A stretch of 64,000 nt of DNA from Psammoneis japonica. Taxonomy: Eukaryota. Shown in pieces: positions 5,936-60,306 of the stretch. Every line of letters starts with the position of its first letter. The first letter of the stretch is position 1. The notes under the pieces are model-generated. The model did not search any database. It saw only the letters and a program-made list of their open reading frames with translations, and was not told where the DNA came from. The DNA is taken from NCBI GenBank assembly GCA_008632985.1, contig QPGO01000057.1, positions 186,001 to 250,000 of the forward strand, in the 5' to 3' direction. The translations under genes were made by a program, and so were the position numbers.

Positions 5936-7189
5936 CTATCTGTCATTGTCTTCTCCAATCATCCTTAGAATGTACAAAAAGATGTTGATGATGTCATTGT
6001 ACAAGGACATTGCGCCAAACACATAGTCCTTCTCGTTCATTTGGAATTTGCTGTGTTTTCCGCCCACAATGAGCTTGGTATGATAAGCCAAGTAAAACGA
6101 AAAGAGTCCAGCACCGAGAAGAGAGTATACAGATTCTCGATAAGGCAAGAATCCTTGTGGCAAGACGCCGGTTAGTTCCAACAAGTGGACGAGACCATAA
6201 ACAAGAAAGATCATTCCCACTCTGACAGCAAAGAAACAAGATCAGTTCGTGAGCATTTGACCAAGATTAGCGATAAGATGAAATGTTTCTCTCGTCTGAT
6301 ACTCACGATGATAGTCCCATTCCCCATTGTGATAAATCGTACTTGGGATTCTTTTGCATGATCGTGTAGAGAGACACGCTCGTGGTTGCAACTGCTGTTG
6401 CCAACATGGCGGACACTACTGACTGGAACTTGTACAGGCTAGAGATAAAACCAATTGAAACAGATTCTCCAGCAGTAAAGAGTGCCAACAGTTGCCACTT
6501 CATTGGTGACTCGTGTCGTGCTCTCGGAGACGAGCAAACAATAAACCATGCAATGGTTGAAAAGACCAAGGATACCAGTGGTACTGTCGCAAGTGTAATG
6601 TGAGTGTTGATAAGAGTAGGTTTTAAAGTCTGCAGGATACTGAACAAAAAGGAAACATACCAAATGATCCAGCGTTACGCATCCAAGCTGATAGCCCAGG
6701 GTTGAGTCCGAAATAGACAATGGAGAGCGCAGTGACCAGCAACTGCCCCGACAGGATCGCGTAAACCCGAGCTGAGAAAAGAAAGAAACACAGAATGAAC
6801 GTATAAGTTCCCTTCTGCATTGAAACTTTGTTTTCTGCCATCAAAAGTAACGGACGTCAACTTCAGCACGTACCGATAAAGGTATTTCTCGATTCTCTTG
6901 TCAAAAAGGAGTTAAGCATTTCCTTAGTTTCTCGTCTATTGTCGATTTGTTCTTCGTCGTCATCTAAATCTCGAACCACGGGATATCTTTGCTGCTCCTG
7001 TTGACGGATCCCCAAGGGTGATGAAGACCATTGCTGCGGCTTCCCTCTTGCGCCTCCGCGAACAAAAACAGTAGGAGGGACTCGAGTGTACACAGTACAA
7101 GCGTGTCGTGCTTGACATGGACGACCAAGGCAGAGAATAAGCGCCAGGGTGGTAAAAAACGAAATTCGTTCTACAAAGCACCTAAACAT
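5936..7189 (-). CDS. Bax inhibitor-1 / lifeguard (TMBIM) family membrane protein, about 4 exons
   Basis: Exon pieces RNTFI..RVYAILSGQLLVT, WQLLALFTAGES, YSLLGAGLFSFYLAYHTKLIVGG...DYVFGAMSLYNDIINIFLYIL (TMBIM di-Asp region), separated by GT-AG introns. Confidence 0.88.
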
Positions 7190-7379
7190 GGGCGCGTTGA
7201 ACTGAGGCCTAGCGGGAGGGGAATGCAGCTTCCTCTATTGTCTCTACTCTAGCTGTGGGTGATATGTACTTCTTGTTCTTGGGATCCGCTCATGCATCAA
7301 AGGCGATATCGTGTTTTCGTGTTGGCATCATCGCGTGTGGCATGCATGGCCGCGTGAAGCGAGCGCGACGCAGATAGTT

Positions 7380-10300
7380 GTGTGATTGCGCTGCCCCCGC
7401 CATCACCCATCACGCCACATCAACCCGGGTGGAGCTCGGACAGTTTGGAATTCGGCTGGGCTGCCTGACGGCATGTCTTCAATGGTCCCTTCTCCATCTT
7501 GTGGAATGAGGCCCAGCTGTCTCTCAGTTGTTGGACAATGGTGGATTGTCTCACCAGAGTCATTTGGTCTCAATGCCGGGGCCATCTGCTTGACGCTCGT
7601 GATGATGACACTCATGGACATGACTGGAAAGCCACCAGAAAGCCAGCACAGCATTGTGGTGCAGAAACTGAATTGAAGGTGACACACTGGTCAGCTGATG
7701 ACTTGCACTTGGCAAGGGGTGGAGGGTGTGCACCCACTTGCGACACTCACTTTTCATGAGATGATCTCCCACTCACTCAGTGCACAGCAGGTGTGTTGGG
7801 AAACTGGTTGGCCACAGCAAAGCCAATGTTCAAGTTGAGCATTGGGGGGGGGGGGGGGGCAACAATTTGCTGCCAGAGGCACGTGCACCATTGCCAGTTG
7901 TTTTTGTGCATCACAGCCATTTGTGACACATTTCCGTGCTTGGCCAGAACAGCACTGATGACCACATGTTCACAATTTTCACATTGTCCTGTGCTGTTTT
8001 TTACCTCACATGTGGTCAAACATTTTTCACATGTTTTTGAAGTCACCTGTGGCACTTTCATGGTTGTTCAAACATCTTGTTAAGAGCAGTTTCATTTGTT
8101 CACTTTTCTGTTTGTTTTGTTTTTTTTCCATTGGACGCTGCACAGCTTGTCCTCCAATCTGACACGCAATGATGACAGTGTGGCACAGCCCTGCTGCAAA
8201 CCACTCTGCTGTTCTGGTCTGACATCTCACAACAATGATGAGCATGATGCTCTCTGCAGACATTTTCAAAGGGATCTCCCTGCCCCAAAATTCTTCTTTC
8301 TTCCATTTTGGCCTGGACAGCACACCTCCTTCCACTGTCAGCTCCTCAGGGGACAATGCTGCCTTGTGACATCCTTCAGGAGAGGCATTGAACAAGTGTG
8401 CAGGAGTGTGCTGACCTGTCAAAGACAAATGAAAAAACATGGTTGTGAGTTGGGAAAAGAGTGTTCAAAGCAGATGAAGAAAACAACAACATGGTCACCT
8501 TCAACACCCAAATCACAGAGTTGTTTGTGCTGTGGTGTGTCTTGAAGACACTGTCCTGGGCAGCCACAAACAAGGTGCTGCTGGCCTTTGGCAGAAGAGT
8601 GCAATTGATTTGGTTTCAAAGGTGAGCCACAAAAGTGCTTCAATCTTGATTCACGACAGCCAATGCCATGGGGCCCACCTTCTTCCAAAACCTCGCACAA
8701 ATGGGAGCTGTGTTGCAGCGATTGTTTTTGTCCATGAGCGCATGTTCCCAAACCATGATTGCAAAGAGAGAGACTCTGAGTTCACACCAGCATCAAGGAG
8801 TGATTGGCAATTTGTGGTGCTTGCCATCTCTGTTTTGACAGAAAACCAAGAGAAAAAAGGAGGTCTCAACCAACCTTTGATTTGCCCACTTTCTGAAGAA
8901 AGTGGTTCTCCAAAGTGATCATTTTGTGGGCATGAAGTGTCCATTTCTGGGCTTTCTGGAGAGATGTCATCACAGCATTGTTGGCAGCAATTTTTTCCTT
9001 GTTGGCGTTGGGTGCTTGTTTGGCAAATGGGAGCAGAGCTTTTCCTGTTGTTTTTTGCATGGGCTGTGCATCTGCCAGTGAACTGACAGCCACATTTTGC
9101 ACCCCTTGTGGGACAAGTTGTTTGGGTTGAAAATGCATGGAGAATGATGCTCAGATGTTTTGAGCAGGTCTGGCATCTTCAAGGAAGAAATTTCATCACG
9201 ATTCATGAGAAAAGTGAGATCTTCAACTGGGGTTGCTGGAAAATGTGGGCCATCTGTGTCATTGGCCGGGGAGGCAGCGGCTGCACAGTTGATGGAGACA
9301 ACAGTGGCAACAGCAGCTGCTGGGTTGTTGGCAGCTGCTCATTGTTTCTGATGGCTTGTCCAGGTGCCTTGCACAGGAGGTTGACCATGAGATCAATGAC
9401 CAGCCCTGCCTGCACCACCACCACCATGACCAACAGCACTGGAGTGGGTGGAACTGCAGTTGCGTTCACCACCTTTACAGCCATGAGTGGCTCCACAAGA
9501 GTTGTTGCAAAATGGCACCATTGTGATGATGCACCAAAAAGCAACATGGTTGCAAGGGAGTGAACCAGGTTGCAAAGATTGCAAGTTGCACCTCTGAAGT
9601 TCTGGGACATTGAAAGAAGAGGGCATGCACCAGCATGACTGTGAAAATTTCCATCTCAACAAGAGCACATTGATGTGGCTAAAAATGAGATGTCAGCCCA
9701 CCCCAGACACAAAAATGCAATGAATCTGATTCAACAGTTCTTTGCACACAGCTGTGAAATTGTGCAACAGTTTGCAAATCAAAAATGTCAAACAGGCAAA
9801 AAACCTTGATGATTTGTTCAAGTCAGCTCAAATTGACAAAACTCTCAAAAGTGAATGTGAGCACATTTTAAAAAGAGCTCCACTTGAAAAGTGACACAGA
9901 CATGAATCACAAGGCCAACTGGTGGCTCAGCATCACCGTGAAAAACAAATCATCATTGCCTCGCATGACACAAAATGCAAAACACAGGACTTGTCCAACA
10001 CGCGCTGACAACAATGCAAACAACTGGCGCTTTTGCCAATCTCAATCATGCTCAGATGTGTTGACACACAAGTCAAGCACAAAGAGACATCAGCGCTGCA
10101 GGGGGGTGCACAAAGGTGAACAGAAGAAGCTGTGTGTGTGAGAGACTGATTCAAAACAAAATGCAAACAAAACTCAGATCTGCCACATGCTCTTTTTTCT
10201 TCTTGCAGGTGAAGTTTTAGCCACCCTGGCATGATGAACAACAGCGAGGTCGTCACAATGAAACAAACACTGGCAAGTCACAAGCTTCATTCATTGTCAT
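7380..10300. repeat. Unclassified degenerate repeat/TE-derived sequence, TpA- and CpG-depleted
   Basis: Same compositional signature as the adjacent copia. ORF-track peptides are Tyr-free and C/H/M/Q-rich, with no recognisable domain. Confidence 0.5.
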
Positions 10301-13300
10301 TCCCCACTTTGCCCATCACGTCAATTGCAAACAAAAATGAGTCATGCTGAAATCTCATGTCTGACAATGAGAGCACTCACTTGCCCCATTGATTTGCTTT
10401 TGCATTGGTGGCGCTGCTCTCAATCTAATTTGTGCATGCCACAATTTTTTTTCTGCACTGAATCTTTTTTTGTCCCCTGTTTCCTGCTCTTTCCTCTTTG
10501 CTTTGTGGGCCCTTCTGCCAGGAGTGCTCCCATCATGATCACACCAATTGTGAAAGACCCTTTGGTTGCAATCAACAAGCTCTTGTCAAGAACACAGAGT
10601 GCTTGTCAAGCACAGAGATCAACCCAAAACAAGAGCAACAGTGTTTTGCGAACTGCCAGCATCGGGACAATCCAACAGATGTCCAGGACAGATGACAATT
10701 GTGTGCCAGATGAGAAAGAAAGTGAGCAAAGGAGAGATCATCAGATCTCTCCATGCTGTCCACACCAGTCTGTCTGACACAAGGGAGTGCACTCCCCCCA
10801 TCTCGGATGTCTGCCACCCTCCCCTGATGAGCAAGCAATGCAGTGCTCATCAAGAAAGCAAGAGACAATCCAAAGAACAAAAATGAGGACCAGAGCAGCA
10901 GAAAAAAAGTGAGGACAAAAAAAAAATTGCCCAAGACTTGATCCACAAACACAACAACAATCAACAGCAGTGTCCTGTCAAGCGGCGGGCATGGCGGGAA
11001 TGAAGCATCCAACCCACAGCCTTGGTCAGTGCATCAGCAGGGTTGACGACACCCGGAATGTGTTGAGTGACAATTTTTCCTGCATTGCGTCAGTCTTGGA
11101 TTGCAAAATGTTGAACGTCAATGTGACGGGATTGCTCCATGGGCACCTTGCTGTTGATCATCTGAGTGGCAGAGGAGCCATCAATGTGCGGGGGAGTGGG
11201 GTCGTGCTGGGGGAAACCCAGCTCCTGGAGCACCATCCTGAGATGCAAAGTCTGCTTTGCACCAGCACCTGCTGCAAGAAATTCAGCTTCCATGGAGCTG
11301 GCAGCCGCAATCATCTGCACTCAACATCGGCAATCAATTGCAGCACCAGCAAGGACATGTGCATGTCCGGTGGCAGACTGCCAATGCCAAAGTTCATTGG
11401 CATGTGCTGCATCAATGAAGCCAAGAAGTTGGAAAAGATTGTCAGCATGAGGAAAATCTGGAAGGGATGGATCATCCTCTGGCCAATCAAAGGAACAAGG
11501 AGGAAGACATGGGTCACACTTGGACTTCTTGTGCATCAACCCCCAATGCTTGGTGCAGCACAAATGCTTGGCCATGCACTTGAGAGATGCACAATGGATC
11601 TCAGCTGGAGCTTTGGAGAACTTCAACAAAGCAACAATGGGATGACCAACACCCAAGCAACAACACAAGCAGGCAAAAACCAGCTCACCCAAGACAGACC
11701 AACAAGAGAAGCCCTGAGATTTGGAGAGGGCATCGTGCTCCAGAGCACCTTCTGCAGGACCTTTGGTGGCGTGCAAATCAGTGGTTCAATCAGCCGGCAC
11801 AGGAGCAGCCTTGAAGTTGGTGTCAGACTCATCTGCAGCAGGAGTGGTGTCCCACCCATGAGTCTTGAAGACATGATCAAGGCAACTTGCAATGTTGGTC
11901 GTGACTGAGTCATCATTCTGAACAACATCAATTCCATTGAATTCAGTGACCAAACCCAAATGCTTGAACGGGGGGCATCTTCATTCTCCATCTGGAGCGC
12001 CTTTCCAACATGGTCACAATCTCTTTTGAAAGCTTCTCCGACAGACAAGCAAGTGCAAAATCATCAACCTGATGGAGCAAGAGAACCTTTTGACACCATC
12101 ACATTCACCTGAATGGGCACACTTGTCATGTGTGGCATTGCAGAAGAGAAGCTTTGCACCCATTGGAATCAAGTTGATGTGCTTTTCCCAAAGTGCACCA
12201 GCTTCAGGGTGACCTTGGAGGGCATGTTTGAGCAGAAGAACACAGTGGCGGGGGGCACTTTCTTGCCAAAATGTTTTTCATGCCATGCAGCACATGCATC
12301 ATCAACAGCAACAAAAACAGGTTGTGAAGGACCAGGAGAACAAGCACAAGCATCCCAAGCATCGCCGCTGCAGATGTGATGTGACATGGCAGCATTGAGA
12401 GCAAAAAACATCTTCTCAATCGAGTGTTCCACAAAAGAAGAGCACGTGGAAGTCAGTTTGTGCAATGCTGGCACAGCCATCTTGGATCCATCACCACATT
12501 GTTGAGAATGATGCTGTCCATCTGGTCTCACCATGCAACCCCAATGTGGGTGCACAACATTTGCTCCAGGAGGTCATGGTTGAGGAGGATCACACACACC
12601 AAGTGCATGGAATTGATCCAATTGACGCTTCTCTCCTTCTTCCCATTCTGGCCATGTGTCAAGCTTGTGCAGCTTGGCACGGGCAAGATGATCAAGGGAA
12701 GCTTCTTCCGGAGTGACAGCACGGGAACTGATTGCGTGAAGATGGGCACACAAAAAGCATCTGTTGGAACAGCCTCATCAGAGAAGCCATCTTCTGGGCA
12801 GAGAACAGCCGCAATGGATTGCACGTCCTCCAAGGCAAGTTCAGGTGCATGGGAATCATCCTCCATCAAGGCAGGATCAAACAGCTCCCTTCCTCAAATG
12901 CTTTTTTAAGAGTTTGGGAGTCCAAACGTCTTTCCAGTGCAAAAGTGATCTCAAAAGTTGGAGTCCATTTGTGGAAGTCAAGACCCACGATGGAGTGCAG
13001 CTTCAGCATCTTTTGGTGTAAAGACTTTGTGCTTGTTGACAGAGACAACATGTGCACCCATGATCTTGTTGCAAGCAGCACAAAGCGATGAGAACAGGGA
13101 GGCCACAGGACTGCACTGCCTGATTTCAGATGCACAGACATGATCCATTGATGCACACTGGGAGAAACCAAAGCCACAGGTGGGATCCATGGGAGGGTGT
13201 TTCATGACACAAGCAACAGTCTTGGCAAAAGGATTCAATGAAGAAGTGAACATGGGAACAGTTGTTTCCTGTGTTTCAGCTGGAAAAGGCTGACCATTTT

Positions 13301-16300
13301 CCACTCATTGCAAATGAGTGGCATTCAGAGAAAGCTGAACAATGACAAGTCATTCATGCCTTCATCATGCTGTGCATGCTTGGCCATCTTGACTTTGTCA
13401 GTCTCAGGATCCCACCAAAGAACATGTTCTTCAAGGTGTTTGGCAGATGACCAAGGAGTGCACCTTTCTTCAAGTTTGTCCTGAACGTGGCTGGATGAGC
13501 AGAAGATTGTCAAGGGTGATGGGAGATGCATCTTGATCTTTGGCAGGAGCAGCATTCTTGGTGTGGAGGCAATGGCAAAAAGCACAGGGCCAGAATTGGA
13601 TTGAGAGGTTGGCACCAATTAAAAAATTGTGTGAGTCACGTTCTCAACAGTTGAATGTGAGTGTTCAACAGGACCACATTGGTTGGATGCACCAGCATCA
13701 GAAACACATGTGTCACACTGGAATTCTCATTCAAAGAGGCCACAAACTTTGGGGTTCTTGTGCAATTCCCCACCTTGATCCACAAACACACATTTGTCAT
13801 GACAGTTTGGTGAGTGTCAATCCAAGAATCGGCAAAGCCACTTGAGAGGACTGGCTTTAGAGACCCGTGCAACACCATGGAGCATGTGCATTTTATGACC
13901 ATGCACAGTGATCTCCAACATGTTTCATCATTGAAACCCAGACAGTCAGACTTGCGCGGTCATCATTCTTGGAAGCCTGACCAGCAAAAAAAAAATCCAC
14001 AGCAAGGCCTTGGCATTGCTGAGTCGCCTTGTGGGTTGCATCAGGTCCATCAGGCGTCTTGACTTGTTTTGCCTGAACACACATTGGACAAACATCAAGG
14101 ACTGGGTTGGCATGTTGGAACTTGGGGACCCCTTTGACACACTTGCAAGCATTGTGCAAGCAATGGTTGCTGGGATGTCCAAGGCAGTGGTGCCACAGTG
14201 AACGTTCAGTCTCAACTTTGAGAGAACGGACCAGAGGAGAAGCAGGCAATGGTGATGAGACTTCATCAAGAGAATGACATTGCATCAAAAACAACTCAGC
14301 ATCCATCACAAGGGTGTCTGTTGGAGCTTGTTGGACATTGACACAGAATGCAGCACGTTGGCGTGCATCTTGAAGATCATCACCCCAGGTTGGATCGGAC
14401 GTTGGAGGTGCTGGACAGGCAGCAGTCTTGGAGGGGGGGACCAAAGGTTGAGCAAAAACCTTTCCATGACAAAGGACACCATGAACTGCTGCCTCTTGGG
14501 TGTCAGTTGAAGCAGCACATTCATCGTGGGACCCCACAAATGCGGAGGGACCCGCAACCCGGAAATGTGCAGAGTTCTACGTGAATGTGTGGGGACTGTT
14601 CACGCAGGTTTTGCACCAGAGCCATCTCGCGAACTGGGCGTTTTTTCGGATTTTTGTCGTAGAAACTGTGCCAGTTTTGCGCATGTAGGCTACATGTTTC
14701 AGTGCCACATACAAAAATTCGCGTAGAGCTCTACAGGAGGGTCCCTCCGCATTTGTGGGGTCTCACGATGAACATGTGCAAGCACTGTCAGCACAGGTCT
14801 TCTCAAGGAGCTTGGAGCAAATGGCATGTGGTTTAAAGCCAGAAGCCCACACAAAATCGCATTCATCAATCAAAGTGGAATGCAGGCTTGGGTGGCAAAA
14901 GGTGCGCGCAAGGAGAAAACCATCTGCATTCTCTGCGGGTGCTTGCATGCAACCACAGCCATGAGGAACCACATCAGAACCTTCAGCAGCAGGGAGCATC
15001 TTCAAAGGACAGGGATTGTCCGGTCCAAATGGAGTGCAAGCATGAAGAAGGTTCTCATCTCCTGCATGGGATGCCCAAGCACCAGCATCAATCTGTGCAT
15101 GGCATGTCATTGAATCTTGGAGCACATGATTGATGGGGACAATGGGGGCATTCAATGATTCAAAGGTTGCAGGTGAATCCAGAGGAGAAAAAATCGGGGA
15201 GATGTGCGCAGCACTCAATGGCGACAAGTGTTGATGGGCAGTCATGTCAAGGCACTCAAATTCTTGGTCTTGAGCAGTGGACAAAGGGGTGTCCACATCT
15301 TGTGCAGGGGATTCATGAAGAATGGGTTCCCTCCCCTGATTGATGCTGTCAGGGTCATCACCCGGAATTGTCTTGACATCCGGAGTGCTGGCCTTTGTCC
15401 AATCCGAAAGAAGATTTGCAAATGACACACGTGAAAGAGGCAATTCAGTGGAAGGCAACAAGTCAGGTAGACCCTCTTTCACAGTCACCCCACTTGCAGG
15501 AGTTGGTGTCAGATTGGAGGGAGACAGGTGGCATTGTGCACCCAAACACAACAACGGCCCTGGGAAAAATCCTTCTTGGTCTTCTCAGCCTTGAGCACAT
15601 CTTGAGCATGCCAACAATGGCCCCAGGAAAAATCCTTCTTGGCTGTGTCAGACTTGAGTGCATCACAAGCACGCTGATCATGTTGAAGAAACTGGGAGAA
15701 CCGAATGAGGTGAGCATGCAAGCACTCAGCATTGTTTGGTGTGGGACACTCATGGAACAAGTGGCCATCACCACAGACAACACAGGGGCGAGTCTGTGCA
15801 CTGTGCAGCAGCAGGTGATGCCTTGATCCTGCAGACACAAGCCTTGCAAATGTCACACAGTGCTTGCACTTCATCATCTGGTGGAATGTCCACAGGCAAG
15901 CTCATTCACAAAGCACTCCACAGCATCTGGAAGCACTTCTGCAGGAGGGGGATTGGTTTCCTTTGGGGGGTTCTTCAACAACAGGGGGTGGATCAGATGA
16001 TTTGTCTGCAGGCAGCAGCAAGTTTAGACCTCAAACAGGAGCTGCAAGAGAAGGATTTGCTGGGGGATGAGGAGTCCTGATTGTGGAGACAATGTGGAGG
16101 ACACTTGGGAGGATCCTTGGTGCAAAGAGCAGGACTGTCCAGTTCCTTGAGGACAGTGCCAATGGTCTCAACAATCTTCTTCTGCGCAAACTTGTGTTGC
16201 TTGTTCTTGTCTTCTCGAGCATCTGCTGTTTTGCAGTGCAGATGCTCTCCAAGTTGGGTGTTGCTGAGAAAAACATCCAGCTCACCAGGGTCATCAAGGG

Positions 16301-18250
16301 AAGCATCAACATTGGAGATGATCGCCCGCAGCTGAAGGAAGTCCCTGAAAAGAGCATTGTAACTGAGAATCATGAGATTGTTCTGGTGCAGGCAGCTCTT
16401 GATCAATTCATGTGGATGCTTCATCCAAATTGGAAGGATGTCAAATGGGGTCATCTTGAGGGTGGCACATCAATCTCCATGGCACTGGCAAACAATGTCA
16501 GGGCACTTGGAGTCAGCTGGAAAAATCCCAACTTTCTGGATGTGCTGGAAAACAGTCAACTTCATCCAGTCAAGTGGCACTTGCATGCGAAGTGGCAGAT
16601 CATCTGCAGGATCATTGCCACTTGTGAAACCCCAATTTCCACCATCCTTGACAAAACACCAGAGAGGATCCATGTGTGTGTGCCACAAGCCGAGGCTTGT
16701 TGGGTTGCGGCAGCATGCCATGCATGGATTCCTTGGGGAAGATGTCATCACACAAGTGAGAGGATCATGCAGAAAAGACTTGTCATCCCAATTGGTGCAA
16801 TGGACAAAGAGAGAACCATCAGTGAGGATGAGACATTCTGCACTGTCTTTGCAACAAACATTTCCAGACTTGCAGGGTGTTGGTGATTTCCCTGACACCA
16901 CCTTGCCCACTTCCTTGCATTGACAGCAAGCCAGCGCATCCTTTGGAAGTCCTTTTGGATCAAAGGTGTGCACAGCACTGGTTGCAGTTGAGGCAGAAGC
17001 TGCAGCAGTTGCAGTTGTGGTGGAAGGTGCAGAAGATGGTGCAGGAGGAGCAGTCTTCTTCGATGCATTGGCCACAGCTTGCTCAAACTGTTTTGGACCA
17101 GGTGGGTGAGTGGCCAAGGCCTCGGCAAAGTCTTCAGGAGTCACACCTGCAGCGGCAGCCAGTGGAGGTGCAGGACTTGGAGCAGACAGCAATTTTGGAT
17201 GTGGAGTGTCAGAGATGTTGTCCCAACAATCACAACACTGAAAACCAGGACAGAAATGGAAACGCAGAGTCTCAACACATGCTGTCATGGTGCCCTCGTT
17301 CTCTGAGATTGCTTTGATCACAGTCTTCTGAAGATCGCTGAGGTTCAGACAAACTGGAGAACCTCAAGGGGTGGCCACAAAGAGAGGAGCCTTGTCAATG
17401 ATCGGTCTGATTTGTGCAAGATCTTCATGTTGATGCTTTGATGCACACGCCATTTTTGTTGACCATGGCAGAAGCTGGCATGCTTTGGCTTTCAGGAGCC
17501 TGGTGTTTTGTGCATGACATGGATCTCTTCTCTTGCTGGTTGCCTGCACTGCTTCTGCACATTTGGACTCTGCACACACTTCACTTGTTTGGCAGAACTC
17601 AGCATCTGAGCTTCTTTGGTGTGCTGAGATGTGTTGATGATGCAGGGGGCATGAATTGAAGTGCCGGCATTTTTGAACTTTTTGGCTTTTGTTGTGAGCA
17701 GTGCACAATGTTCTGCAAAAAATGACAGGCAGCTCTCCTTCCAGTGTGATGGAAAAATGAAGCAGTTCATTGATTTGGTGCTCCCATTGCCCCACAAACA
17801 ATGCTGAAAAACCAGAGCTCACAGTGCAACAATGGAGCGACCCCAGCACAAACAACAAGCACTTGGTGCACAGCACATGCAATGGCAGGTGGCAACACAG
17901 GGGAAAAATGGCAACCGCACATGTCCCAAACACAACAATGCATTTTTGACAAGTGAGCACACGTGCTTGTGCAGCAAATCTCAGCGGCATGTCGCATCTC
18001 AACCTCTGAAGGTGTGTGCTGATGTGCAGAAAAAGTGAGAGAGACACACAAGGAGGGGGGCCAACACGAGTGTTCACCACAGTTTGCAGGCAACAAAGTG
18101 GCACTCACACACTGTGTCAAACAGCAAACACATGTTGATGGGTTTGTGTGTGGGGGTGTGTGACTTTGGCAAGTGAATGTTCGTCCAATGCGAGTGTGAA
18201 GTGCTCCGATGATTCTGTTGTGCGTGATGTGTCTCGGCCAACGGACGGAC
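10300..18250 (-). mobile_element. Degenerate Ty1/copia (CoDi-like) LTR retrotransposon, gag-PR-IN-RT-RH; ends approximate
   Basis: Minus-strand domains in copia order: gag-like (16-17.3 kb), protease QIDAGA (~15.09 kb), pre-integrase LWHHCLGHP...CPMCVQAKQ (~14.1 kb), RT ALQGHPEAGALWEKHIN and LLLHQVDDFALAC (~12.05-12.2 kb), RNase H SSMEAEFLAA...SRHIDVQHFAIQD (~11.1-11.3 kb). A polypurine tract AGGGGAGGG followed by TG lies at ~10.82 kb. Many frameshifts and TGA stops; a matching LTR pair was not found. Confidence 0.93.
14521..14771. mobile_element. MITE (251 bp) with 33-bp TIRs and ACAT target-site duplication, inserted in copia pol
   Basis: TCATCGTGGGACCCCACAAATGCGGAGGGACCC (14521-14553) is the reverse complement, with 1 mismatch, of 14739-14771. 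ACAT flanks both sides (14517-14520, 14772-14775). Removing the element rejoins the copia frame (...DSACTC|AASTDTQ...). Confidence 0.9.
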
Positions 18251-18294
18251 GTGGACTTGTATTTTCTTCTTCTCATTTCTCATTCCCTCCAACC

Positions 18295-21200
18295 ATGGCG
18301 TCCGCACCACCGCTATCGTCGCCTGCAAAGTTCAAAGCCTGTCTGACGACATTCAAAGAGACTTCTCTCTCGAACAGTAATGCTAAATTACAGTACGGGT
18401 ATTTGCTGTTGAGCGAGTTGGTTCAACGTGGAGTCGACGTGTCATCACTCTTCGCTTCTGACAATTCAAACGATGACCTGACACTAGTTTTCAACGCGGT
18501 CCAATCGACAGCGGGCAAAGCAACGTTGGCAGAACAAACGTCCATTCCGAAGCCTCTTTTGGTTGCATCCTGTGCGCTGTCTGGTATGATTTGTGAAAAA
18601 TGTGTAGGGCTACAATCAGATGAAGAAGCCGTTTTCGAGTTGTCTCGAGAGGAAGATACCGCCCGTCGACAGGCGCTGGAAAAGTCTCAGCAAGTCCAGG
18701 ATGGGCGAATACAGTGTCTTCTGCAACTTGTGCTATCACAGAAGGATGAATGGATTATGCAATTGCTCCTTATCGCGGAAGGCAACTATCTTTGTGCTGC
18801 ATCCATGCAACCAGACACACCGCAAATGTGGAAGCGCGCTCTTGACGTGATTGTCCTTAGACAAGAACCTCACCAACAACTCGTTGAAGCTACGTTGCCT
18901 CTCCAAGAGCTGTCTCGAATTGCGCAATCAAAGCAAAATCAAAGGCGGGTTTCAGAGCTAAGCTTGCGCTTGGCGGAAAGTTACCTGGGGCAAGCACGTC
19001 AATACCCGACACGATCATTACAAGAACAAATCTACAATGCATTTGTTGCCCCCTACGAAAAACAGCCCACAAGCAAAATGGACGAGGTAGGTTGTGCAAG
19101 TCAAGCTGTGGAGGCCTTGAAAAACTGCGATTTGTCCTTGTTACAGGAGACGGATCAGCAAGAACGTTGGGAGTTGCGATACTTTATGATATCTTTTAGA
19201 GCAAGCATTGTGACCAACGAAACAAGCAAGGTGGATCAGCTGGCGCAAGAGCAGTGTACAGCGGCCAAAAACCGTTCAAAGGGAACGTCGTCAACTCTTC
19301 AAACCTACAAGGAGTCTGCACGACAAGAAATCTTGCAAGAAAAAAACTTTTTTGATATTCAAGAGAAAGCCTGTTTGCTAAGAGATATCGCCCTTGCTGC
19401 TCTCGGGGAATCGATGTCTTTGCATCACGTACTGAATGACTCCATGCAGTTGCTATGCCAGCATATGGAACGTTTAGAATTTAGAGCTCGTGCTGTCGGT
19501 GTTCAAGCACGGGCGACAGCATTGAATTACAAAGAAGCATGGTCTAACCTATCATCATTTGTGGCGCCCATTTTTGATTACATTCAATCGCAAACAAACG
19601 AGGATATTCTCTCCGTTCTTCGCAAACTTCCTCGTGATGCACGAAAACTAATAGAATATGCCTCAATGGCGTCCACTGCTGTTGTCTGGATGACGGCCGC
19701 TTTGTCAACTGAGGAAATTCCTTGCCGAGAACTGTGTTATGATGTTTTGTCTGGATCTCTTGTCATTGCAAACGAATTGGAGCAAGAACTCACCTCTTCT
19801 GGGGAGGAGAGCGTGGTAAAGACCAGGAAGAAGGATCCGTATGTGTTGCGATTATCTTGCGCACACTCCACGGCGATGTCACTCCTGGCAATGACCAGCC
19901 AATCAGATACAACGCACCTTGAATTGATACAACGAGTAACCGACGAGGCCATAAACATGTCCAATCGAATCGTCACCGAAGCGGAATATAATCAAGAAGA
20001 GTATAAGTGGAGTGTCAAGTATGGAAGCGGGTTCCTACAGTTCCTTGTTGCGTGGTCCGGATTGCAGGCATCACCATTTCCATACTGCAATGTGACGCAA
20101 GCGCGACTTCTTATTCAAGGTGCGAGAAATTGTCTCAAAGACGCTGCCAAGGAATGGGGCCGACCCAACTCTCTGATTGAAGCCATTTTGGTGGATTTAG
20201 GACAATCCGATTCGGAGGGTGGACATCTTAACGGTGGATTCATGGGCGAAGCCGAAAAGTTGTTTCAAACGATACAACAGCAAGTTTCAACGATTGAGCC
20301 TGACCAGGAAGAGCACTTAAATCGTCCTCTTCTGGCGCTAGTGCAGATTCACTGTACCAACGGACTCGCAAACATTGCCTTGAAGAGCTACGTAGATGCT
20401 GACGCTGAAAGGACAGCAACCGAGCGAGCAGAGGTATTGGCTCGCGAGAGTCTGGAAAAGTTGGATGAACTCCACTCTAGCATTTCTAACATCGATCCTG
20501 AGATTTACTTGTGGAAATCACCGAAAGCATATGGACAGTCCCTTCAATACCATTTAAGCGTGGCGAGGCAGCTTGTGGCTGATTCCCTTATTCGTGCATC
20601 ACGCCCGCGGGACGCACAGTCATTCCTGGAAGACGCCGTGACGGATTCACCCTTGGATGTTGATGCAGCGATTGCGCTCGGAGCATTTCGCCTGAGAATG
20701 CTATTTTTTCCGAACGAGCAGTCGACAACATCCATCAGCGACGATGAAAAGCTATCTCAAACTCAGCTTCTAAAAGCCGCCAAGTTGGATTCGACGAGGG
20801 CAGACCCTTTCGCCTTACTGGGCTTGTGGTACGAACGACGAGGGGATACCAGACGGAGCGTGGGGTGCTTTTCTAAGGCTCTCTTGCTAGAACCATCTCA
20901 TCCCGTTGCTGGGAGGGGACTGCTTCGTTTGGAACCTGTTGAGAAGCTAAGTTCAATTCTAAATGCTGCATCCACTTCAAACTCGTCTTTGAACGGTTGG
21001 GCATGGCGTGCAATAGGTCAAAGAAAGGCCATTGTGGAATGCAACGATGATTTGGCGACCGTTTGCTTCCACAAGGCACTCCGATGTCGTGATGTGGAAT
21101 GCCCACAAAATGAGTCCCTTGGAGTATTTTACGGGAAGCCTCCACCGCAGACACCAGAGCCAGTTGACTCTTCCCCTCAGAACGACCTGAGCGATGTCTG

Positions 21201-23334: not shown

Positions 23335-25158
23335 TTACTCGCCGAACGGCTTTCTCGCAACAACGCACACGCGAGCACAAAGCTTGTTCATGTCGTATTC
23401 CTCCAAATGCTCATAATCTTTGCTACCTACATGAACGGTGCTTCTGTCTGGGTTCATATCTGAAATCTCGTCATTCTCTTCTTCAGAAAGCTCATACGCC
23501 ATGAGAGAATCACTGTCGTCTATGACAACACTCTCAAATCCAATCTTCTTGCAAAGCGGAAGCAGCTGGTTCAGGGGAATGAACATCCTCATGCAGAGTG
23601 GCCAAGTAACTCCGTCTTCCAGTTCGTCCACCTTTAGCGTTGACGTGCAAATTGAACACCGGCCTCCTGGCTTCAGGACACGGAAGATTTCTCGAAAAGC
23701 CTTTTCCTTATCGGGGGCAAGACAAAACGCCCCGTTGGAAATAACAACGTCAATCGAGTTGTCCGGCAACGGGATTGCCTCCATGTCTGCGACCGCAAAG
23801 CGAATGTCTAGGTCACGCCTAGCTGCGCATGCTTGAGCGTGTTCCACCTCTTGTTTGCTTATATCAATGCCAACGACCTTTCCTTCATCTCCTGCGTAGT
23901 GGCTCGCAATGAAGGAATCAATACCCAAGCCAGAGCCAACATCCAAGACACGTTCTCCCCTTTGTATTTTGGCGTGCAAGTGCGGATTCCCTACCCCCTG
24001 AAAGTTGTACGCGTCTTTTCCAGCAACCTCAAACTCTTCATCGGTATAACCTAGACTCGACATGATGGCCTTTGCTCGCTTCATGTTACCCTCTAAATGA
24101 GCCGTCTCACCGACCTTGTTGTAGGCTTGAGCAGTTTCCTCCTTGGCAACTTCGTCCTCGAGGCGAAAAACATACAAAAAGTCGGCAGGATTCGACCCCG
24201 GCGGTCCAAAGGCATCCTGGATATCCTTTGCCACGGCGTCCTGATCATTCACATCCACATGAGTTGCGTGAGAAAGCACCAAGCAGGTTTCATCCACAAG
24301 CTCTGGATGTCGCTCAAGCACTCGATCTGGAACCCCTTGATAATGCATAAGGTGTCCGTTCCCCGCAATCACTAGAAATCGCTCGTCTTTTTCGCTCTTG
24401 TCCAATAGACCATTGATCTTGTGTGCCATGGCCACGTCCTTGAGTACCTGCGCTTTGAAGATGCCACGAAACTGATCGCTGGGTGGTTTCGGATTCTGAA
24501 AAAGCGAGCGTCCGCTAATGAGGCTTTCAAACACATTGTAGTGAAAGTCGTTCCCGGCCAACATATTTGTAGTTTGTGACGGCAAGAATTCAGAAGCAGC
24601 CTTTAATGCTGCTGGTTCTCCTTCTCTCATGAGTTGTCTCGCAAAGGTTCTCGATAGAAATCCCGCGTGTAAAACAATTTCCTTCTTGTTTTCCCTAGCA
24701 TGCTCCAAGAGCGGTCGATATGGCTGCAAGTCGTGGTTCTCTGTTCCAATGCGTTTGTATTGCACCAGCAATTCATCAAAATCAATTTGTTCCTCTTGAT
24801 ATTGTCGAAGCAGTTCTTGCATCTCAAAGCTAAAGTGTTCGAGTACGACGTGAAGTCTGGATGATTCACTGCGGAGCTTTTCTTGAATTGCCAGTTGCAG
24901 CGCGACAATCGGAGACATGGAGTGTATTTCTCCAACAAAAATCAACTTGTGCTGTGCTACTTGGTCCAAAAAGGAAAATCGATCATAGACGTGACCAAAG
25001 TTGTTGGCAGCCGACGACTTGATGTGGTGCGTCGTCTGGGTGTTGTCGCCATTCAAGTGCGAGAACTTTTCTCCAACGTCCGTGTAGAGACTCGGTGAAG
25101 CACGAACTCCCACAAACATCTTGTAGGCAACCTCCGAAAGAGACTTCCACTTCAACAT
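23335..25158 (-). CDS. Fusion: ChaN-like (Tiki/EreA superfamily, haem-uptake) domain plus arsenite-methyltransferase-like class I SAM methyltransferase
   Basis: N-half LIFVGEIH...LEHFSFEMQ...Y.PLLE.AR...AQVLKDVAMA...VIAGNGH..YQGVP is ChaN-like. C-half FQGVGNP...GERVLDVGSGLGID...VVGIDIS...IPLPDNSIDVVISNGAFCLAPDKEKAFREIFRVLKPGG is ArsM/AS3MT-like. Start placed at MLKWK. Confidence 0.8.
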   Translation of the reverse strand: MLKWKSLSEVAYKMFVGVRASPSLYTDVGEKFSHLNGDNTQTTHHIKSSAANNFGHVYDRFSFLDQVAQHKLIFVGEIHSMSPIVALQLAIQEKLRSESSRLHVVLEHFSFEMQELLRQYQEEQIDFDELLVQYKRIGTENHDLQPYRPLLEHARENKKEIVLHAGFLSRTFARQLMREGEPAALKAASEFLPSQTTNMLAGNDFHYNVFESLISGRSLFQNPKPPSDQFRGIFKAQVLKDVAMAHKINGLLDKSEKDERFLVIAGNGHLMHYQGVPDRVLERHPELVDETCLVLSHATHVDVNDQDAVAKDIQDAFGPPGSNPADFLYVFRLEDEVAKEETAQAYNKVGETAHLEGNMKRAKAIMSSLGYTDEEFEVAGKDAYNFQGVGNPHLHAKIQRGERVLDVGSGLGIDSFIASHYAGDEGKVVGIDISKQEVEHAQACAARRDLDIRFAVADMEAIPLPDNSIDVVISNGAFCLAPDKEKAFREIFRVLKPGGRCSICTSTLKVDELEDGVTWPLCMRMFIPLNQLLPLCKKIGFESVVIDDSDSLMAYELSEEENDEISDMNPDRSTVHVGSKDYEHLEEYDMNKLCARVCVVARKPFGE

Positions 25159-25674
25159 GGTCTTGAATAATACTGCAAAGAGAAAGCGCGTCTCAGATTT
25201 GCTCAATATTCGATGCGGCTCACCTCCAGAACAGCGAACACTACGAAACAATAGAGAATACCAAAAGCGGGTGTCAACTGCGGCCGGGTGAGTCAACCTT
25301 GCGTTCTGCGTTCTGGTTCTGCGATCTTATCCCGCGATCTTTCACCTCGCGCGGTGAACTCGCGAGTGGACGACTTACTCGACTCCTCTGTTTGTTCAGG
25401 ATCAGTCGAACCGTCAACCGTACGGTCATTACGATCGTGGATATGTTGAATAATCAATCCTTATGAATGAATAAATACAGTCATCGCGGTCACAAGTTTG
25501 AGTGCCGATCGGTACTCGCCGGCCGTGCGACGTGCGACGACTCAACCATGCTCATCCAAAGAATTAGGCGAAGCTGGAAGCGCTACATATTCATACACAT
25601 CGAACACAAGGGTTCTTTGTTGCTATCACAGTAGGTCGTATGCTTGTTTGCTCGCAATAGATATAGCCTCAGTG

Positions 25675-37487: not shown

Positions 37488-40400
37488 TTGGCTTGGCGCT
37501 TGTTGGATGATGATTCTTTCTCCGAGTCTATGGATAGTCCCGGTTATTCTAGTCAGCCAGACGTACGCAACCCGACGACCGTCCATCGTACGCTGATTTG
37601 TAAATTGACATCGACACCAAAAAAACACACCGCACCATGGTGCATGAAATTCGGAGGCCCACCAATCGATGACTGTAACGATTTCAAAAGCGACACCGCA
37701 CAGTCTATCAATCACCACACTAACTGCATTTTATCTGTCCAATGTGAGTGGTCGTGTGAGGATAAAACGTCTGTCTTGTTCTTCATGATCATCACGATTG
37801 TCACCCAATCCCCCAAGCGTCCTCGACATGATGTGCTCGCAGTGATGGAACCAGAGGGTTTAGAGTGCTCCAAATGCAACATGCAGACATCAAATGCACT
37901 GGGAACATGTTTTATGGAGCAATTGGTTGTTTGAGAAAACACACGCTTTGTGTTGGATGCTTCGCGAGAGCATGTGTGCAGCGGTCTCTGGGAAAACACA
38001 ACAAACAACTGACATGCCCAAAGAGTGACACCCTTTGCGCCAAGTGTCAGAGCCATTCTTTTTAACACACTCCATGAGATGGAAAAAATAGAATGCAGAG
38101 AAGAGCCTCTGATCATAAAATGGAGCAACCTGGCCCAGAAGAAGGAGACTTTGTTCGACAGGTGTTTGCACCTCGACTTGGCAAATGTGTTCGATTTGAA
38201 TCGACAGTCATGGAGAGCCCAACAGTGCAGGTGTGGCTGTGTGGCTTGCAATTCAAAGTGGGCTGAGGAGATGAAAGCCATGAACCAAGTGCAGCTTGAC
38301 ATGTTGGAGGGATGGCTGTCTGCTGTGCAGTCGCAACTCAACAAGGAGGAGGCAATTGTCCATGCTGCCTTTTCAGCCTTTTGCAAGAGCACCGCTGCAA
38401 ATGCAGGGACCTGTGTGAGAAGTTCTCCACATGGTTCTCTGGAGCTGGGGCCATTGCACAAGCCATGCCCAAACTGTCCAGGCATGTTTGCTCATCACTG
38501 AGATGACACAATCGACTGGCCCTGTCACAAGCACTGACAAGTGTCATGGGATTTCCTGACATTCTTCTTTGCAATTTGCCAATGCATTGTTTGATGCCAA
38601 TGTCACCTCATGTGAAGGGGATTACATTCAAGTTCATGACTGTGCCCAAAAGGCAGATCACACCAACATTGAAGGAGACAACTGCTTTCATTGCAACAAA
38701 CCTCCCGCCACTGCTGGATTGGTGCATTTGGCCAAAGGTCACCATTGCAAGGCTCTGCCCTCAAGCTGGCCTCTGTTTCTGGTCCACTGGACAGCTTCAA
38801 CACTGTGCTGAGCATGAAAGATGTTGCGCTGCATGGTGCTCTTTTGGCAATTGCTGCAAACTGAAAAGAAGCCAGCTTTGCTTCATGTTGGTGCCACTGT
38901 CAGTGACTGGCACAGTGCTTGCAGATGGAAACTCAATGGGGCGGTTTGCTGCTGGACTGGAGTCAAGTTGGCTCCCTTGGTTTGTGATGGGCACAAGTTG
39001 TGCATGGACCAGCTTCATTCAGGAGCTGAAACCACAGCTCCTGCTTGACCTGCAACACTTGGACTTCCATGTTAACATGATCTTGCTTGATGAGATCTGG
39101 GGCTGGTGCTTGGTCAAGCACCTTTCTCCCTGCCGGCATGCGCAACTTTTGATGTCATGTGTCTCAAGTTTGGCTTGTCAGCCAACAAGTTGCAGATGTT
39201 CTGCAGGTCACCAAGTGTCAACGCTGGAGGAGAACATGTTGAGCGATGCTCATGCCATGATTTTCTGCAAGCAATTTCCTGTTGTGGAAATGTGCACATG
39301 CCTGGACCAACGGCTGGTCTCTCACTTCTTGCACATGTCACTTCTGAGTGAACCCAGGAATGGTGTGTTCAGAGCACAATTTGGTGCTTTGAGGGAGGAG
39401 ACAAGAAACAAAGTGATCAGGGGTCAAAATGGGGCACTTGTCTGGCTCCTGAAATGAGAGACATTGCTGAAGGAGTTTTGATGTGGATGACAGCAGTGAT
39501 GATGACAATGAGCTCATGGTTGACTTTGATGCCATGAATCCAGAAGATTTGTGCCAAATCACCATGGGGAGGGGGGGGGCAAATCTGCAGTGGTGGGTGC
39601 CATTGTTCCCAACAGAGTGGAGCTTGTGCATTGACAAAGAATCTCTGGAACAGGCGCTTTGTGTGCACTGTCATCTCCATGTCCATTTCACCATTGGCGC
39701 ATTGGGCGGCAAATGATGCCACCACACATTCAGGCCAAGGACCGCCACAATCACACCAGATGTTGCCAGCATCACAAAGCACCTGCACATCTGCATCATC
39801 AAACAACTTGAAAGAAAAGATTTCATGATTCAATTGAACATGATTGGCGCTGTTGCTTTTTGGAATAACCCATCTGTGAACGGCTGGTGCATCACTTTTT
39901 GTTCAATGAAGTGCAGCAAAACATGAGAGCCTGACACACACCACACTTTTGCCCAAATCCAGCAACCAACCCACCAGCCATTTGTCAGTGAATTGGAAGC
40001 TTCTTTCAATTTGCATTCACCACAGAGTGGAGAGCAACTAATGAAAGTGGCAAAATGAATGTGCCATGAGCAATGGCCACTGACTCCAACAGACCTCACT
40101 TCCCTCAAACAGCAGACATTCTCCAAAGCGATTTTTGGAAGAGATTTTGAAGGTGTTTGTGCCCAATCAGATTGATGGTGGAGATCAAGCAATGATCAAG
40201 ACAGGCCAGATTGAGCTCTTCCAAATTTTCACAATGTGCCTTGAAGGCTTCTCTCAAATCTGGACCTCCAGGTGTTTTGGCAAAGATGAGCAGTGTTTGT
40301 TGCGATCCCGTCAAAGCCATTTTGGCTCAAAGCAGATCTTTTTGCAAGTTGTCTTCTTGTGCAGCTCCCTTTCCCAATGCTCTAAATTCTTAACCTTCAA

Positions 40401-40930
40401 TCTCTCAAAATCATGGTGATGTTTGTCGAGCATGACAAAATCCTTGGCTTTCTCATCAACAATTCCGGGGCACTTGGAGCAAACCGCGGCTGATCTTGGG
40501 GTTGCCGCAGAAGCCCCCACCAACTTTGTGACACATTGCGGCAAACCTTTGCTGTTGACTCCCTTTGTGTCATTAAAATCAAGCTTCAGCAGCTTCAAAG
40601 TTCCATCAAGCAACTGACAGACAATTCAACGTGAAAATCGTTCAACACTTTGGGGGCACAATTCATGACAACATCGGTCGGTTGCTGTGTGATGAAAAAA
40701 TCCTTGTCATTTAAAGAAGACAGAGACAAGGTGTCACTTGTCAAACAGTTGCAGTTGTTGAGTTGTGGGCCTCCAAATTTCACATGCCGTGGTGCGGTGT
40801 GTTTCTTTAGTGTCGGGTGCAGAGGTGTCAACTTGCAAATCAGCTTGCAACGGACGGTCCCCGGCTTGCATTTTCTTGGGAGTGCACAGATGAAATTAAG
40901 AAAGCCAGAGTGGAAGATACCTAAGCACAT
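37488..40930. pseudogene. Convergent (inverted) pair of degenerate paralogous genes or repeats, hypermutated
   Basis: Plus-strand TVHRTLICKLTSTPKKHTAPWCMKFGGPPIDDCNDFKSDT (~37.58-37.7 kb) matches minus-strand TVRCKLICKLTPLHPTLKKHTAPRHVKFGGPQLNNCNCLTSDT (~40.73-40.86 kb). The interior is TpA-depleted. Confidence 0.65.
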
Positions 40931-48694: not shown

Positions 48695-49050
48695 TTGGAG
48701 ACAACACGCCATCAAGCATGATGAGTTGTGGAACACCAAACAAGAGCTAGCTCTCTATTATCCGCAAGAAGGGCGAGCCATCCTGGGCGATCGCGGCAAT
48801 CGTTGCTTGGCGAACAACAACACATCGTGCGAGACAACGAGTTGTGAGTGAAAGAGCGCGAAAGGAAAAGCTTTCGAGAGATTTTGTGTGTCGTGACCGT
48901 TGCTAATTTTCTCAATCACTATCATTTTTGTGTATCTTTGTATAATCGATACCATCACTTCGTATGTAGAACATTCGTGAGATCTTGGTACTTTCAAAAT
49001 TATTACCAATTCCTACGTAAACTTTACGTAACGGTCCAAAACGCAAAAAA
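48695..49050 (+). repeat. Non-hypermutated copy of a dispersed repeat (partner at 52325-52670)
   Basis: Alignable by eye over ~350 bp (acaacac.ccatcaagc...gagattttgtg...ctcaatcact.tcattttt...ctttcaaaatt). Confidence 0.9.
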
Positions 49051-52000: not shown

Positions 52001-52199
52001 AGACCTTCAAATTACGATGGGCGAATCCAGGGTTCTTTGCGGATGGAGAGTCTCCCGCCGACATGGTCAAGAAGCACTGGAACAGTCATTGTGGCCGCAT
52101 GTGTGGCGGTGGCAGAGCTGAAGATGAAAACAGTGACGCTGAAATGGAAACCACTGAAAGCAAAATTCAATGCCACCACGAAGACCCAACAAAGAAATC

Positions 52200-52465
52200 T
52201 TGTGGAGCACCAAACAAGAGCGAGTGCTCAATCCAGAGGAAGGGCGAGCCATCCTTGGCAATTGCGGCATTCAAGCTTGGCGAACAACAACACAACGTGC
52301 GAGACGACGAGTTGAAAAAGAGAGACAACACACCATCAAGCAAAATGAGTTGTGGAATGCCAAACAAGAGCAAGCTCTCAATCCAGAGGAGGGCAAGCCA
52401 TCCTTGGAGATTGCGGCTTCCAGCTTGGCAAACAACAACACATCGTGTGAGATGACGAGTTGTGA
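52200..52465 (+). repeat. 150-bp tandem duplication
   Basis: tgtgga...caaacaagagc...ctcaatccagagga...gccatccttgg...gcttggc.aacaacaacac occurs at 52201 and again at 52351. Confidence 0.88.
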
Positions 52466-59950: not shown

Positions 59951-60306
59951 TCGTGACTTCTTCTCGAAGATGACGGGTGAACTTCCGAATGCCTTTAGGA
60001 AGTTGAAGGTCAGATAAAAAGCACGGTGTGTCAGTGCTTTTGCTGACGTGTCAGAAAGCCCTATCACCTAATTCTTGATGACGTGTCTCGACACTCGATC
60101 AACGTCAGAACGGTTGACAAGATCGATTCTGAGCATTTTGTGGATGACTGGCTGGCGGAAAGCGAGTTCGTATCCGCATTGTCACGTCAAGCGCATTTTG
60201 GAGTCGTGGTGTATTGTTGTTCACTTCTTGCCAATCCTGCTTTCGGTGTGATTGTCAAGAAGCACACAACTCTCAACTACAACTACTCGTTCTTTACACA
60301 ATAATC

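Follow-up and report, generated by a model that had tools for sequence, protein, structure and literature searches.

A dead Ty1/copia element lies on the minus strand of a 64,000-nucleotide stretch of the Psammoneis japonica genome (contig QPGO01000057.1, positions 186,001 to 250,000). This stretch is called the window and all coordinates are counted from its first letter. The conserved tyrosine and arginine codons of the element were found to be recoded. The recoding is read as the protein-level trace of TpA to TpG/CpA hypermutation of silenced diatom transposon DNA, together with a separate CpG decay, and this reading is given a probability of about 0.8. The direction of the change was observed, as were its dinucleotide and flanking context, its occurrence on both strands, its sharp edges, its saturation, the independence of TA and CG loss, and independent hits in separate copies. 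The element and the open reading frames (ORFs) that carry its quoted motifs are listed here.

10970 to 15190, minus strand: Ty1/copia polyprotein remnant (gag, integrase, reverse transcriptase (RT) and RNase H, in order), placed by tblastn of the relatives P0002, P0005, P0120, P0107, P0089 and others.
11090 to 14576, minus strand: stretch with recoded motifs, from ORFs and alignment to relatives.
11090 to 11320, minus strand: RNase H ORF, containing ...KQTLHLRMVLQELGFPQHDPTPPHID...SRHIDVQHFAIQD.
11943 to 12098, minus strand: RQVDD-box ORF, containing LLLHQVDDF.
12169 to 12573, minus strand: RT ORF, containing ...STCSS...HICSGDAWDACAC.
13893 to 14576, minus strand: ORF with the integrase zinc-binding HHCC region, containing LWHHCLGHP.

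The recoding was measured against intact relatives. An HMMER search of the 227-aa translation of 13896-14576 (minus strand) against 1.84 billion representative proteins gave 240 matches at E ≤ 0.001. The comparison set was the 14 relatives of at least 700 aa among the matches listed (150 of 240), and these were aligned to the window by tblastn. A column was taken as conserved where at least five relatives were aligned with at least 70% agreement. There were 419 conserved columns and the window carried the same residue at 301 of them. None of the 20 conserved tyrosines was kept. Eleven had become Cys (TGY, where Y is a pyrimidine and R a purine), seven His (CAY), one Trp (TGG) and one Phe (TTT). 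Nine of 33 conserved arginines were kept. Among the 24 lost, 18 were CpG-transition types (CGN to TGN or CAN), namely eight His, four Cys, three Gln, two Trp and one TGA stop, and the other six were four Lys, one Ala and one Met. Well-kept columns were Gly (38/41), Pro (31/32), Glu (13/13), Trp (11/12) and His (21/23).

The tyrosine content of the relatives was normal (2.5-4.5%). In a leave-one-out control the relatives kept 109 of 140 tyrosines and 207 of 229 arginines, and the window differed from them with Fisher p values of 5e-12 (Tyr) and 2e-14 (Arg). The same control gave 89% for Gly, 88% for Pro, 84% for Glu and 91% for Trp. The codons of these four residues can hold no internal TA or CG and were kept in the window as in the relatives, so the element is not simply old. 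Once TA- and CG-dependent changes are set aside, preservation of the window copy equals that of a living relative.

Codons that begin with A (Ile, Met, Thr, Asn, Lys) gave the same picture. When preceded by T their first base was G in 13 of 18 cases, A in two and T in three. Without a preceding T the A was kept in 45 of 51 and was G in two of 51 (Fisher p 2e-8 against the T-preceded codons). Many Ile to Val and Thr to Ala changes arise because A-initial codons after T turn G-initial. Changes of Arg to Cys, His, Gln, Trp or stop and of Thr to Met fit CpG decay, and Thr to Met via ACG to ATG was seen at codons 11293 and 11140.

An earlier sequence-only reading of this DNA had claimed systematic Tyr to Cys/His and Arg to Cys/His/Gln recoding and had attributed the Arg and Thr to Met changes to CpG transitions. 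The counts above agree with it. Tyrosine replacement was not random, with 18 of 20 going to TGY or CAY, and the tblastn alignment to intact polyproteins with codon tabulation that it had proposed as a check is the comparison reported here. All four peptide strings that it quoted were located on the minus strand in the ORFs listed. Six of its seven consensus motifs were present in the relatives. LHLR in the window corresponds to (K/R/L)YLR, with Tyr in five of six relatives, and PPHID to lY.D, with Tyr in five of six and His in one intact relative. The Tyr consensus also held for STCSS (TYsS), and DACAC corresponds to DA.nAya. Arg was present in all six relatives for LLLHQVDDF (..(L/C/A)RQVDDF) and in 13 of 14 for LWHHCLGH (LWHqRLGH). 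The seventh motif, 'HIDxRYF', did not hold up. Intact P0002 and P0089 have QHF, so HIDVQHF is natural.

Dinucleotide counts showed that the recoding is a property of regional blocks and not of the element. Three TA-erased blocks were delimited in the window.

7376 to 18259, no strand: block 1, 10.9 kb, with 16 TA outside a small insertion and low CG.
38117 to 40711, no strand: block 2, flanked by 140-bp inverted repeats of 73% identity (37567-37697 and 40730-40869).
49444 to 59995, no strand: block 3, including 50501-52500 where CG is largely kept.

The three blocks total 23,766 bp and hold 43 TA (1.81/kb) compared to 42.15/kb outside. CG density was 13.9/kb in the blocks and 55.4/kb outside. 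As observed/expected ratios (O/E), TA was 0.03 in the blocks and 0.62 outside, and CG was 0.23 and 0.97, respectively. These were the sole depleted dinucleotides. CA and TG rose to about 1.8 inside the blocks. AA and TT were 1.19 and 1.25 in the blocks and 1.11 and 1.12 outside, AT was likewise unchanged, and base composition was nearly equal inside and outside. Block edges were sharp and could be placed to about 100 bp. Block 1 ends on the right at 18200-18260, and the ORF of a tetratricopeptide repeat (TPR) gene has its first ATG (18295) 35-95 bp further on. This neighbouring ORF of 1073 codons has a normal TA content, as do the host ORFs beside the blocks. Block 1 reaches 3.6 kb and 3 kb past the polyprotein on either side. 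The earlier reading had tied the recoding to the element. The element is indeed recoded, but as part of a block of 10.9 kb that continues well past its ends.

The direction of the change could also be read from a pair of paralogues at the left of block 3.

48698 to 49028, plus strand: unmutated paralogue of about 330 bp, just outside block 3.
52322 to 52648, plus strand: hypermutated paralogue, inside block 3.

The two copies are identical at 260 of 326 aligned bases. Sixteen TA of the outside copy could be aligned, and in the inside copy eight of these were TG, three CA, one CG, one TA and three other. Of 21 CG in the outside copy eight were kept and eight were TG or CA. The paralogue pair, the conversion of all conserved tyrosine codons and the A-initial codons bear out the earlier view that TA was lost and not ancestrally absent.

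Both strands were hit. The polarised tyrosine changes comprised 12 coding-strand A>G (Cys-type, including TGG) and seven coding-strand T>C (His-type), with no significant bias. The TAs that survive in the blocks were mostly YTAR (29/43 compared to 288/1684 outside, p 1e-12), and RTAY was absent among them (0/43 compared to 507/1684 outside). The target of the mutator looks like 5'-TAY. The survivor pattern fits this target, which is present on both strands of RTAY, on one strand of YTAY and RTAR and on neither strand of YTAR. Tyrosine codons after a pyrimidine gave seven Cys and one His, and those after a purine gave five and six, respectively. In the paralogue pair YTAY became TG four times and CA never, while RTAR became CA twice and TG never. 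When sites with TAY on one strand were pooled the predicted product was found 13 times and the other once (one-sided binomial 15/16384). Excess products in the blocks were largest for TGY (+10.8 and +11.7/kb) and RCA (+13.5 and +15.0/kb), with a lesser excess of TGR (+4.2 and +8.5/kb) and YCA (+5.7 and +6.5/kb).

The loss of CG was separable from that of TA. Positions 50501-52500 in block 3 hold 0-4 TA per 500 bp and 12-25 CG per 500 bp, compared to about 28 CG outside. TA and CG loss are therefore independent, and TA erasure saturates before CpG decay is advanced. The usual signature of CpG decay was present, with low CG in the blocks and CGN to TGN or CAN at 18 of 24 lost arginines. Cytosine methylation is described as controlling transposable elements in diatoms, which have DNA methyltransferases (PMC9998398). 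As in the CpG decay of methylated diatom transposons, CG here is about a quarter of its density outside and TG and CA were gained. CpG decay does not account for the loss of TA.

The identity of the element was established from its relatives. Residues 1-1277 of P0002 were collinear with the minus strand from 14996 to 10970, and the match reached 15188 with P0005 (tblastn). Integrase lies upstream of RT, the polyprotein order expected of Ty1/copia. Pfam domains in six long relatives were gag_pre-integrs and SH3_retrovirus followed by RVT_2. In the window 13896-14576 (minus strand) matched gag_pre-integrs with an E value of 2.3e-6 and a score of 27.7 bits that falls short of the 28.4-bit cut-off, and RVT_2 was undetected by Pfam on the fragmented, recoded ORFs of the element. 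As the Pfam result on the element itself was sub-threshold, homology was assigned by tblastn to domain-bearing relatives. The Pfam scan covered 338 stop-to-stop ORFs, 223 of at least 90 aa from the whole window (E ≤ 0.001) and 115 from the blocks (E ≤ 0.01). Inside the blocks it found gag_pre-integrs alone, plus one chance PBAN match. A word-indexed homologue search with 11324-11785 (minus strand) gave 297 candidates and none at E ≤ 0.001. The best relative, P0001, belongs to a protein cluster from the diatom Cylindrotheca fusiformis. Judged by these homologies the element is a dead Ty1/copia long terminal repeat (LTR) retrotransposon and a candidate 'CoDi'-like element of diatoms.

The element had been called functionally destroyed, and so it is. 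All three frames are occupied, with TGA stops and frameshifts. Along the path to P0002 (tblastn) the window copy has 20 stops in frame and changes frame at least four times, a further frameshift lies near 12090 and gag is interrupted by a 265-bp insertion. No LTR pair was found in 7000-18500 using exact-seed direct repeats, blastn self-comparison and purine/pyrimidine-recoded 26-mers. The highest-copy segment is the following.

10609 to 11009, no strand: just downstream of the polyprotein end, with a summed contig depth of 6649 compared to 55-65 in single-copy flanks.

This segment is possibly a remnant of the 3' LTR. The assignment is unproven and no matching 5' LTR was found.

Two further repeats inside the blocks bear on when and where erasure took place.

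14515 to 14779, no strand: insertion in gag resembling a miniature inverted-repeat transposable element (MITE), 265 bp, with 34-nt terminal inverted repeats that are 97% complementary and AAGCA as candidate 5-bp target duplication.
55956 to 59700, plus strand: tandem array of about 1.35-kb units, 73-79% identical, inside block 3 and interrupted by 283 N.

The MITE-like insertion was not hypermutated (seven TA and many CG). It is multi-copy, as contigs of run X2 match 14520-14772 only and then continue into unrelated flanks. It either arrived after erasure or is below the length that can be targeted. Together with the unmutated 330-bp paralogue it indicates that being repeated is insufficient for erasure. 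The escape of both could be due to short length, to recent arrival or to targeting by a domain mark and not by homology. When the tandem units were compared, concordant sites were 101 CA/CA and 97 TG/TG against 27 discordant, with 152 transitions and 101 transversions. Most TG/CA states are common to the units, so most of the erasure preceded the duplication.

DNA contigs of run X1 were aligned to 7000-19000 with an 85% similarity threshold. Contig depth was 55-65 at the outer parts of block 1 and over the host gene, and 300-2000 over the copia element and the region upstream. The outer parts of block 1 (7401-9405 and 17426-18227) are near-single-copy yet erased, and these could be old repeats now below 85% similarity. 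The copies had been hit INDEPENDENTLY, and the differences between them were mostly transitions (A>G 149, G>A 129, C>T 110, T>C 98), with each transversion type at 16-26. TG and CA were swapped between copies at 8148/9, 10763/4, 10976/7 and 15067/8. These four are among the best-supported differences, which also include nine exchanges between TG/CA and CG. Such differences would be expected if one ancestral TA or CG had been resolved independently in separate copies.

The signature was also found in metagenome contigs. These were scanned with an alignment of six intact relatives, giving 80 copia loci, and as the scan needs conserved peptide patterns strongly erased copies were under-sampled. 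TA O/E of these loci was mostly 0.55-0.8. One family of about 35 copies was examined over an 807-bp segment, with 32 copies kept and three excluded as less than 70% identical to the consensus, which holds 40 TA and 116 CA/TG. TA had become CA or TG at 28 of the 40 sites in copy L052, 25 in L049 and 16 in L046, and the reverse change was seen at two of 116, two of 116 and none, respectively. The same site was resolved to CA or TG in different copies. Across all copies RTAY was lost most often (100/310, related copies being counted as independent). A contig region of about 2.5 kb (L044:250-2750) has 0-2 TA in each 250 bp, with CA+TG doubled and CG normal, and adjoins an unmutated copia N-terminus. 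No close unmutated DNA relative of the window element was present among the 80 loci, just patches of 67-73% identity. The metagenome family is probably another family in another organism. The partly and fully TA-erased copia-bearing metagenome contigs are new here.

These patterns would be produced by a region-targeted mutator that prefers 5'-TAY and turns the A:T pair of TpA into G:C, whichever strand it acts on. Its products would be TpG and CpA, and it would have run nearly to saturation. A second and slower process would convert CpG to TpG or CpA, most simply by deamination of methylated cytosine. A TadA/ADAT-like deaminase may carry out the first by converting adenine in DNA to hypoxanthine, which is read as G. 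This is suggested by the mutation spectrum of Bigelowiella natans with its ADAT2-like candidate and by the need of TadA editors for a 5' pyrimidine. Targeting might rely on a mark of silenced chromatin or small RNA and not on pairwise homology.

Among known systems TpA hypermutation in B. natans comes closest, and a 2026 preprint (Mettrop et al., bioRxiv 10.64898/2026.01.13.699255) is its only publication. It describes TpA-only A>G/T>C hypermutation of integrated nucleocytoplasmic large DNA virus (NCLDV) and virophage DNA in mutation-accumulation lines and proposes an ADAT2-like candidate. It also reports that reverse-transcriptase and DDE Pfam domains are over-represented in TpA-poor, CpA+TpG-rich clusters. 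According to the preprint nearly all changes there are A>G/T>C at TpA only, giving TpG/CpA, in discrete foreign or selfish regions with the remaining nucleus normal. The window likewise showed A:T to G:C change restricted to TpA, TpG and CpA products, and discrete blocks with normal flanks. The host here is a diatom (stramenopile) and there a chlorarachniophyte. Erasure here is near saturation (TA O/E 0.03) compared to a Rho of 0.45 reported for the NCLDV region. What was hit here is a copia retrotransposon together with other repeats, and CpG decay is superimposed. The mutations were measured de novo in the preprint, and here they were read from sequence alone. A 5'-TAY preference with YTAR survivors was found here, and the words 'trinucleotide', 'flanking', 'CpG' and 'diatom' do not occur in the main text of the preprint. 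The TAY/YTAR context, the near-complete saturation on a retrotransposon and the occurrence in metagenome contigs thus go beyond that main text. No diatom report of TpA erasure was found in full-text literature searches.

Natural TadA edits the UACG anticodon loop. For TadA-derived editors the modelled substrate was TAC and early versions are reported to have strictly preferred a 5' pyrimidine (PMC7056309), and TadA context data were not found in PMC10661471. Conversion of A to inosine read as G, the 5' pyrimidine and the TAC substrate all match the 5'-TAY target deduced here. The natural enzymes edit tRNA, and the deaminase proposed here is a putative one. Activity on nuclear DNA is reported for few, the amphioxus and Trypanosoma ADAT2 cited in the B. 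natans preprint.

Repeat-induced point mutation (RIP) changes C to T at CpA (or another CpN) in repeats, making TpA, and hits both copies of a duplication. It is described in Neurospora and other ascomycetes in the abstracts cited here (PMC2621366, PMC7296669). The window resembles RIP in the regional, near-saturating transitions that kill transposons, the dinucleotide context, the intact neighbouring genes and the missense and nonsense changes in frames. The direction is opposite, as TpA is destroyed here by A>G and made from CpA by C>T in RIP. RIP hits both duplication copies; here the 330-bp copy at 48698-49028 and the multi-copy MITE-like element are untouched, and both are short, so that a length threshold could explain it. 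Fungal RIP was ruled out by the TA O/E of 0.03, the CA/TG O/E of 1.8 in the blocks and the direction from TA to TG/CA.

Other origins of the pattern were weighed. The same TpA-targeted mutator could act through another chemistry, either a thymine modification of the 5-hydroxymethyluracil/base-J type (TET/JBP-like) at 5'-RTA that is miscopied as C, or error-prone patch synthesis in repeat chromatin. TpA is self-complementary, so T>C at R-T-A equals A>G at T-A-Y in sequence, and the link between CG-poor (presumably methylated) DNA and TA-poor DNA would suit repair-coupled mutagenesis. This is considered improbable. The products are nearly all transitions (18 of 20 Tyr columns), and both the stretch at 50.5-52.5 kb and L044 lost TA without losing CG. 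Evidence that diatoms modify thymine was not met, no specific search for it having been made. The WA motif of polymerase eta (W, A or T) is known from somatic hypermutation, and a process of this type should deplete AA/TT. It was ruled out as neither is depleted in the blocks. Editing of the retrotransposon RNA by an ADAR-like enzyme (A to I) before reverse transcription, with integration of the edited copies, would suit a retroelement with A>G after a 5' U or T. ADARs are not known outside animals, and they favour a 3' G, while the surviving TAs precede a purine. Editing of sense RNA gives sense A>G only, and seven of the 19 polarised tyrosine changes are sense-strand T>C. The whole of block 1 was erased alike, flanks included, and so were two blocks that lack a retroelement signature. 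The preference of ADAR for an upstream U is taken from the B. natans preprint (bioRxiv 10.64898/2026.01.13.699255), and ADAR editing as the source is very unlikely.

Neutral decay of an old element under a background bias, or a lineage that always avoided TA, is hardly credible. It agrees with the under-representation of TA genome-wide (O/E 0.62 outside the blocks), but non-coding DNA outside the blocks keeps 42 TA/kb and the blocks have sharp edges. Gly, Pro, Glu and Trp were kept as in intact relatives while Tyr was lost at 20 of 20 columns, and the changes lead to stops, frameshifts and residues without function. Nanopore data are known to contain motif-specific miscalls where bases are modified, and the platform of the assembly and of runs X1 and X2 is not on record. 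Modified TpA and CpG in heterochromatin could then have been miscalled in long reads. There is little chance of such an assembly or base-calling artefact. The k-mer contigs of X1 match the block with 0-2 differences over pieces of up to 2.9 kb and contain many distinct copies with alternative TG/CA. TA and CG are retained in the MITE-like element within the block, metagenome contigs whose names are in SPAdes style carry the signature too (L044), and in B. natans the mutations are reported as called from Illumina reads (bioRxiv 10.64898/2026.01.13.699255).

Several points weigh against TpA hypermutation with separate CpG decay as the source of the recoding. The evidence comes from sequence, and an enzyme, a base modification or a chromatin mark is not among the things observed. 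The ancestor was deduced from relatives 36-46% identical to the window copy instead of from an unmutated member of its own family. Run X1 reproduces the block but may be the assembly's own data, and is not independent with respect to a base-calling artefact. The TAY strand rule is not significant on tyrosine codons alone (7:1 compared to 5:6, Fisher p 0.15), and in the metagenome family it was not followed, with YTAY giving TG 54 and CA 49 when related copies are counted as independent. T>C through a modified thymine at R-T-A leaves the same pattern as A>G at T-A-Y.

A wider proposal is put forward tentatively, with the odds somewhat against it. Diatoms and at least one uncultured organism might have a dedicated nuclear DNA adenine-deaminase defence, a natural adenine base editor specific for 5'-TAY that is directed to the chromatin of silenced transposons. 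Such a defence would be common to these organisms and Bigelowiella and therefore old within SAR (stramenopiles, alveolates and Rhizaria). As a mirror image of fungal RIP it would rid invading DNA of TA and hence of every TAA/TAG stop and Tyr codon. If TA to TG/CA rewriting in DNA is correct, a second and distantly related algal lineage inactivates its transposons in this way, and a single-species curiosity becomes a candidate widespread genome defence. It would also indicate that adenine in nuclear DNA is deaminated by a natural enzyme with a defined TAY context, a result of relevance to base editing. The protein-anchored test works without an unmutated copy of the family, gives the direction of mutation and can be reused on other genomes. 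Standard RIP indices would miss the TA-erasure signature.

TA-free DNA lacks TAA and TAG stops and so holds long open frames. Three of 316-331 codons were found at 10913-11905, 38507-39454 and 49727-50683, all on the plus strand. The first, of 331 aa, runs antisense to the RNase H region. Such spurious ORFs would be called as genes and profile searches fail in TA-erased DNA, so diatom gene and repeat annotation will be misled. No protein family was recognised by Pfam in the block ORFs of blocks 2 and 3 or of the flanks of block 1. The position of block 2 between 140-bp inverted repeats suggests a DNA transposon of about 3.3 kb. A TA-rich stretch (20 TA) at 49200-49443 abuts the edge of block 3.

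The host genes in the window are diatom-like. The best named relatives of an eRF3-like host ORF, at 70-80% identity, were from diatoms only, and a protein-atlas search with this ORF returned its family but no informative taxon. The host ORF at 23338-25326 (minus strand, 663 codons) fuses ChaN/Tiki haem-binding and class I S-adenosylmethionine (SAM) methyltransferase domains, an unusual combination.

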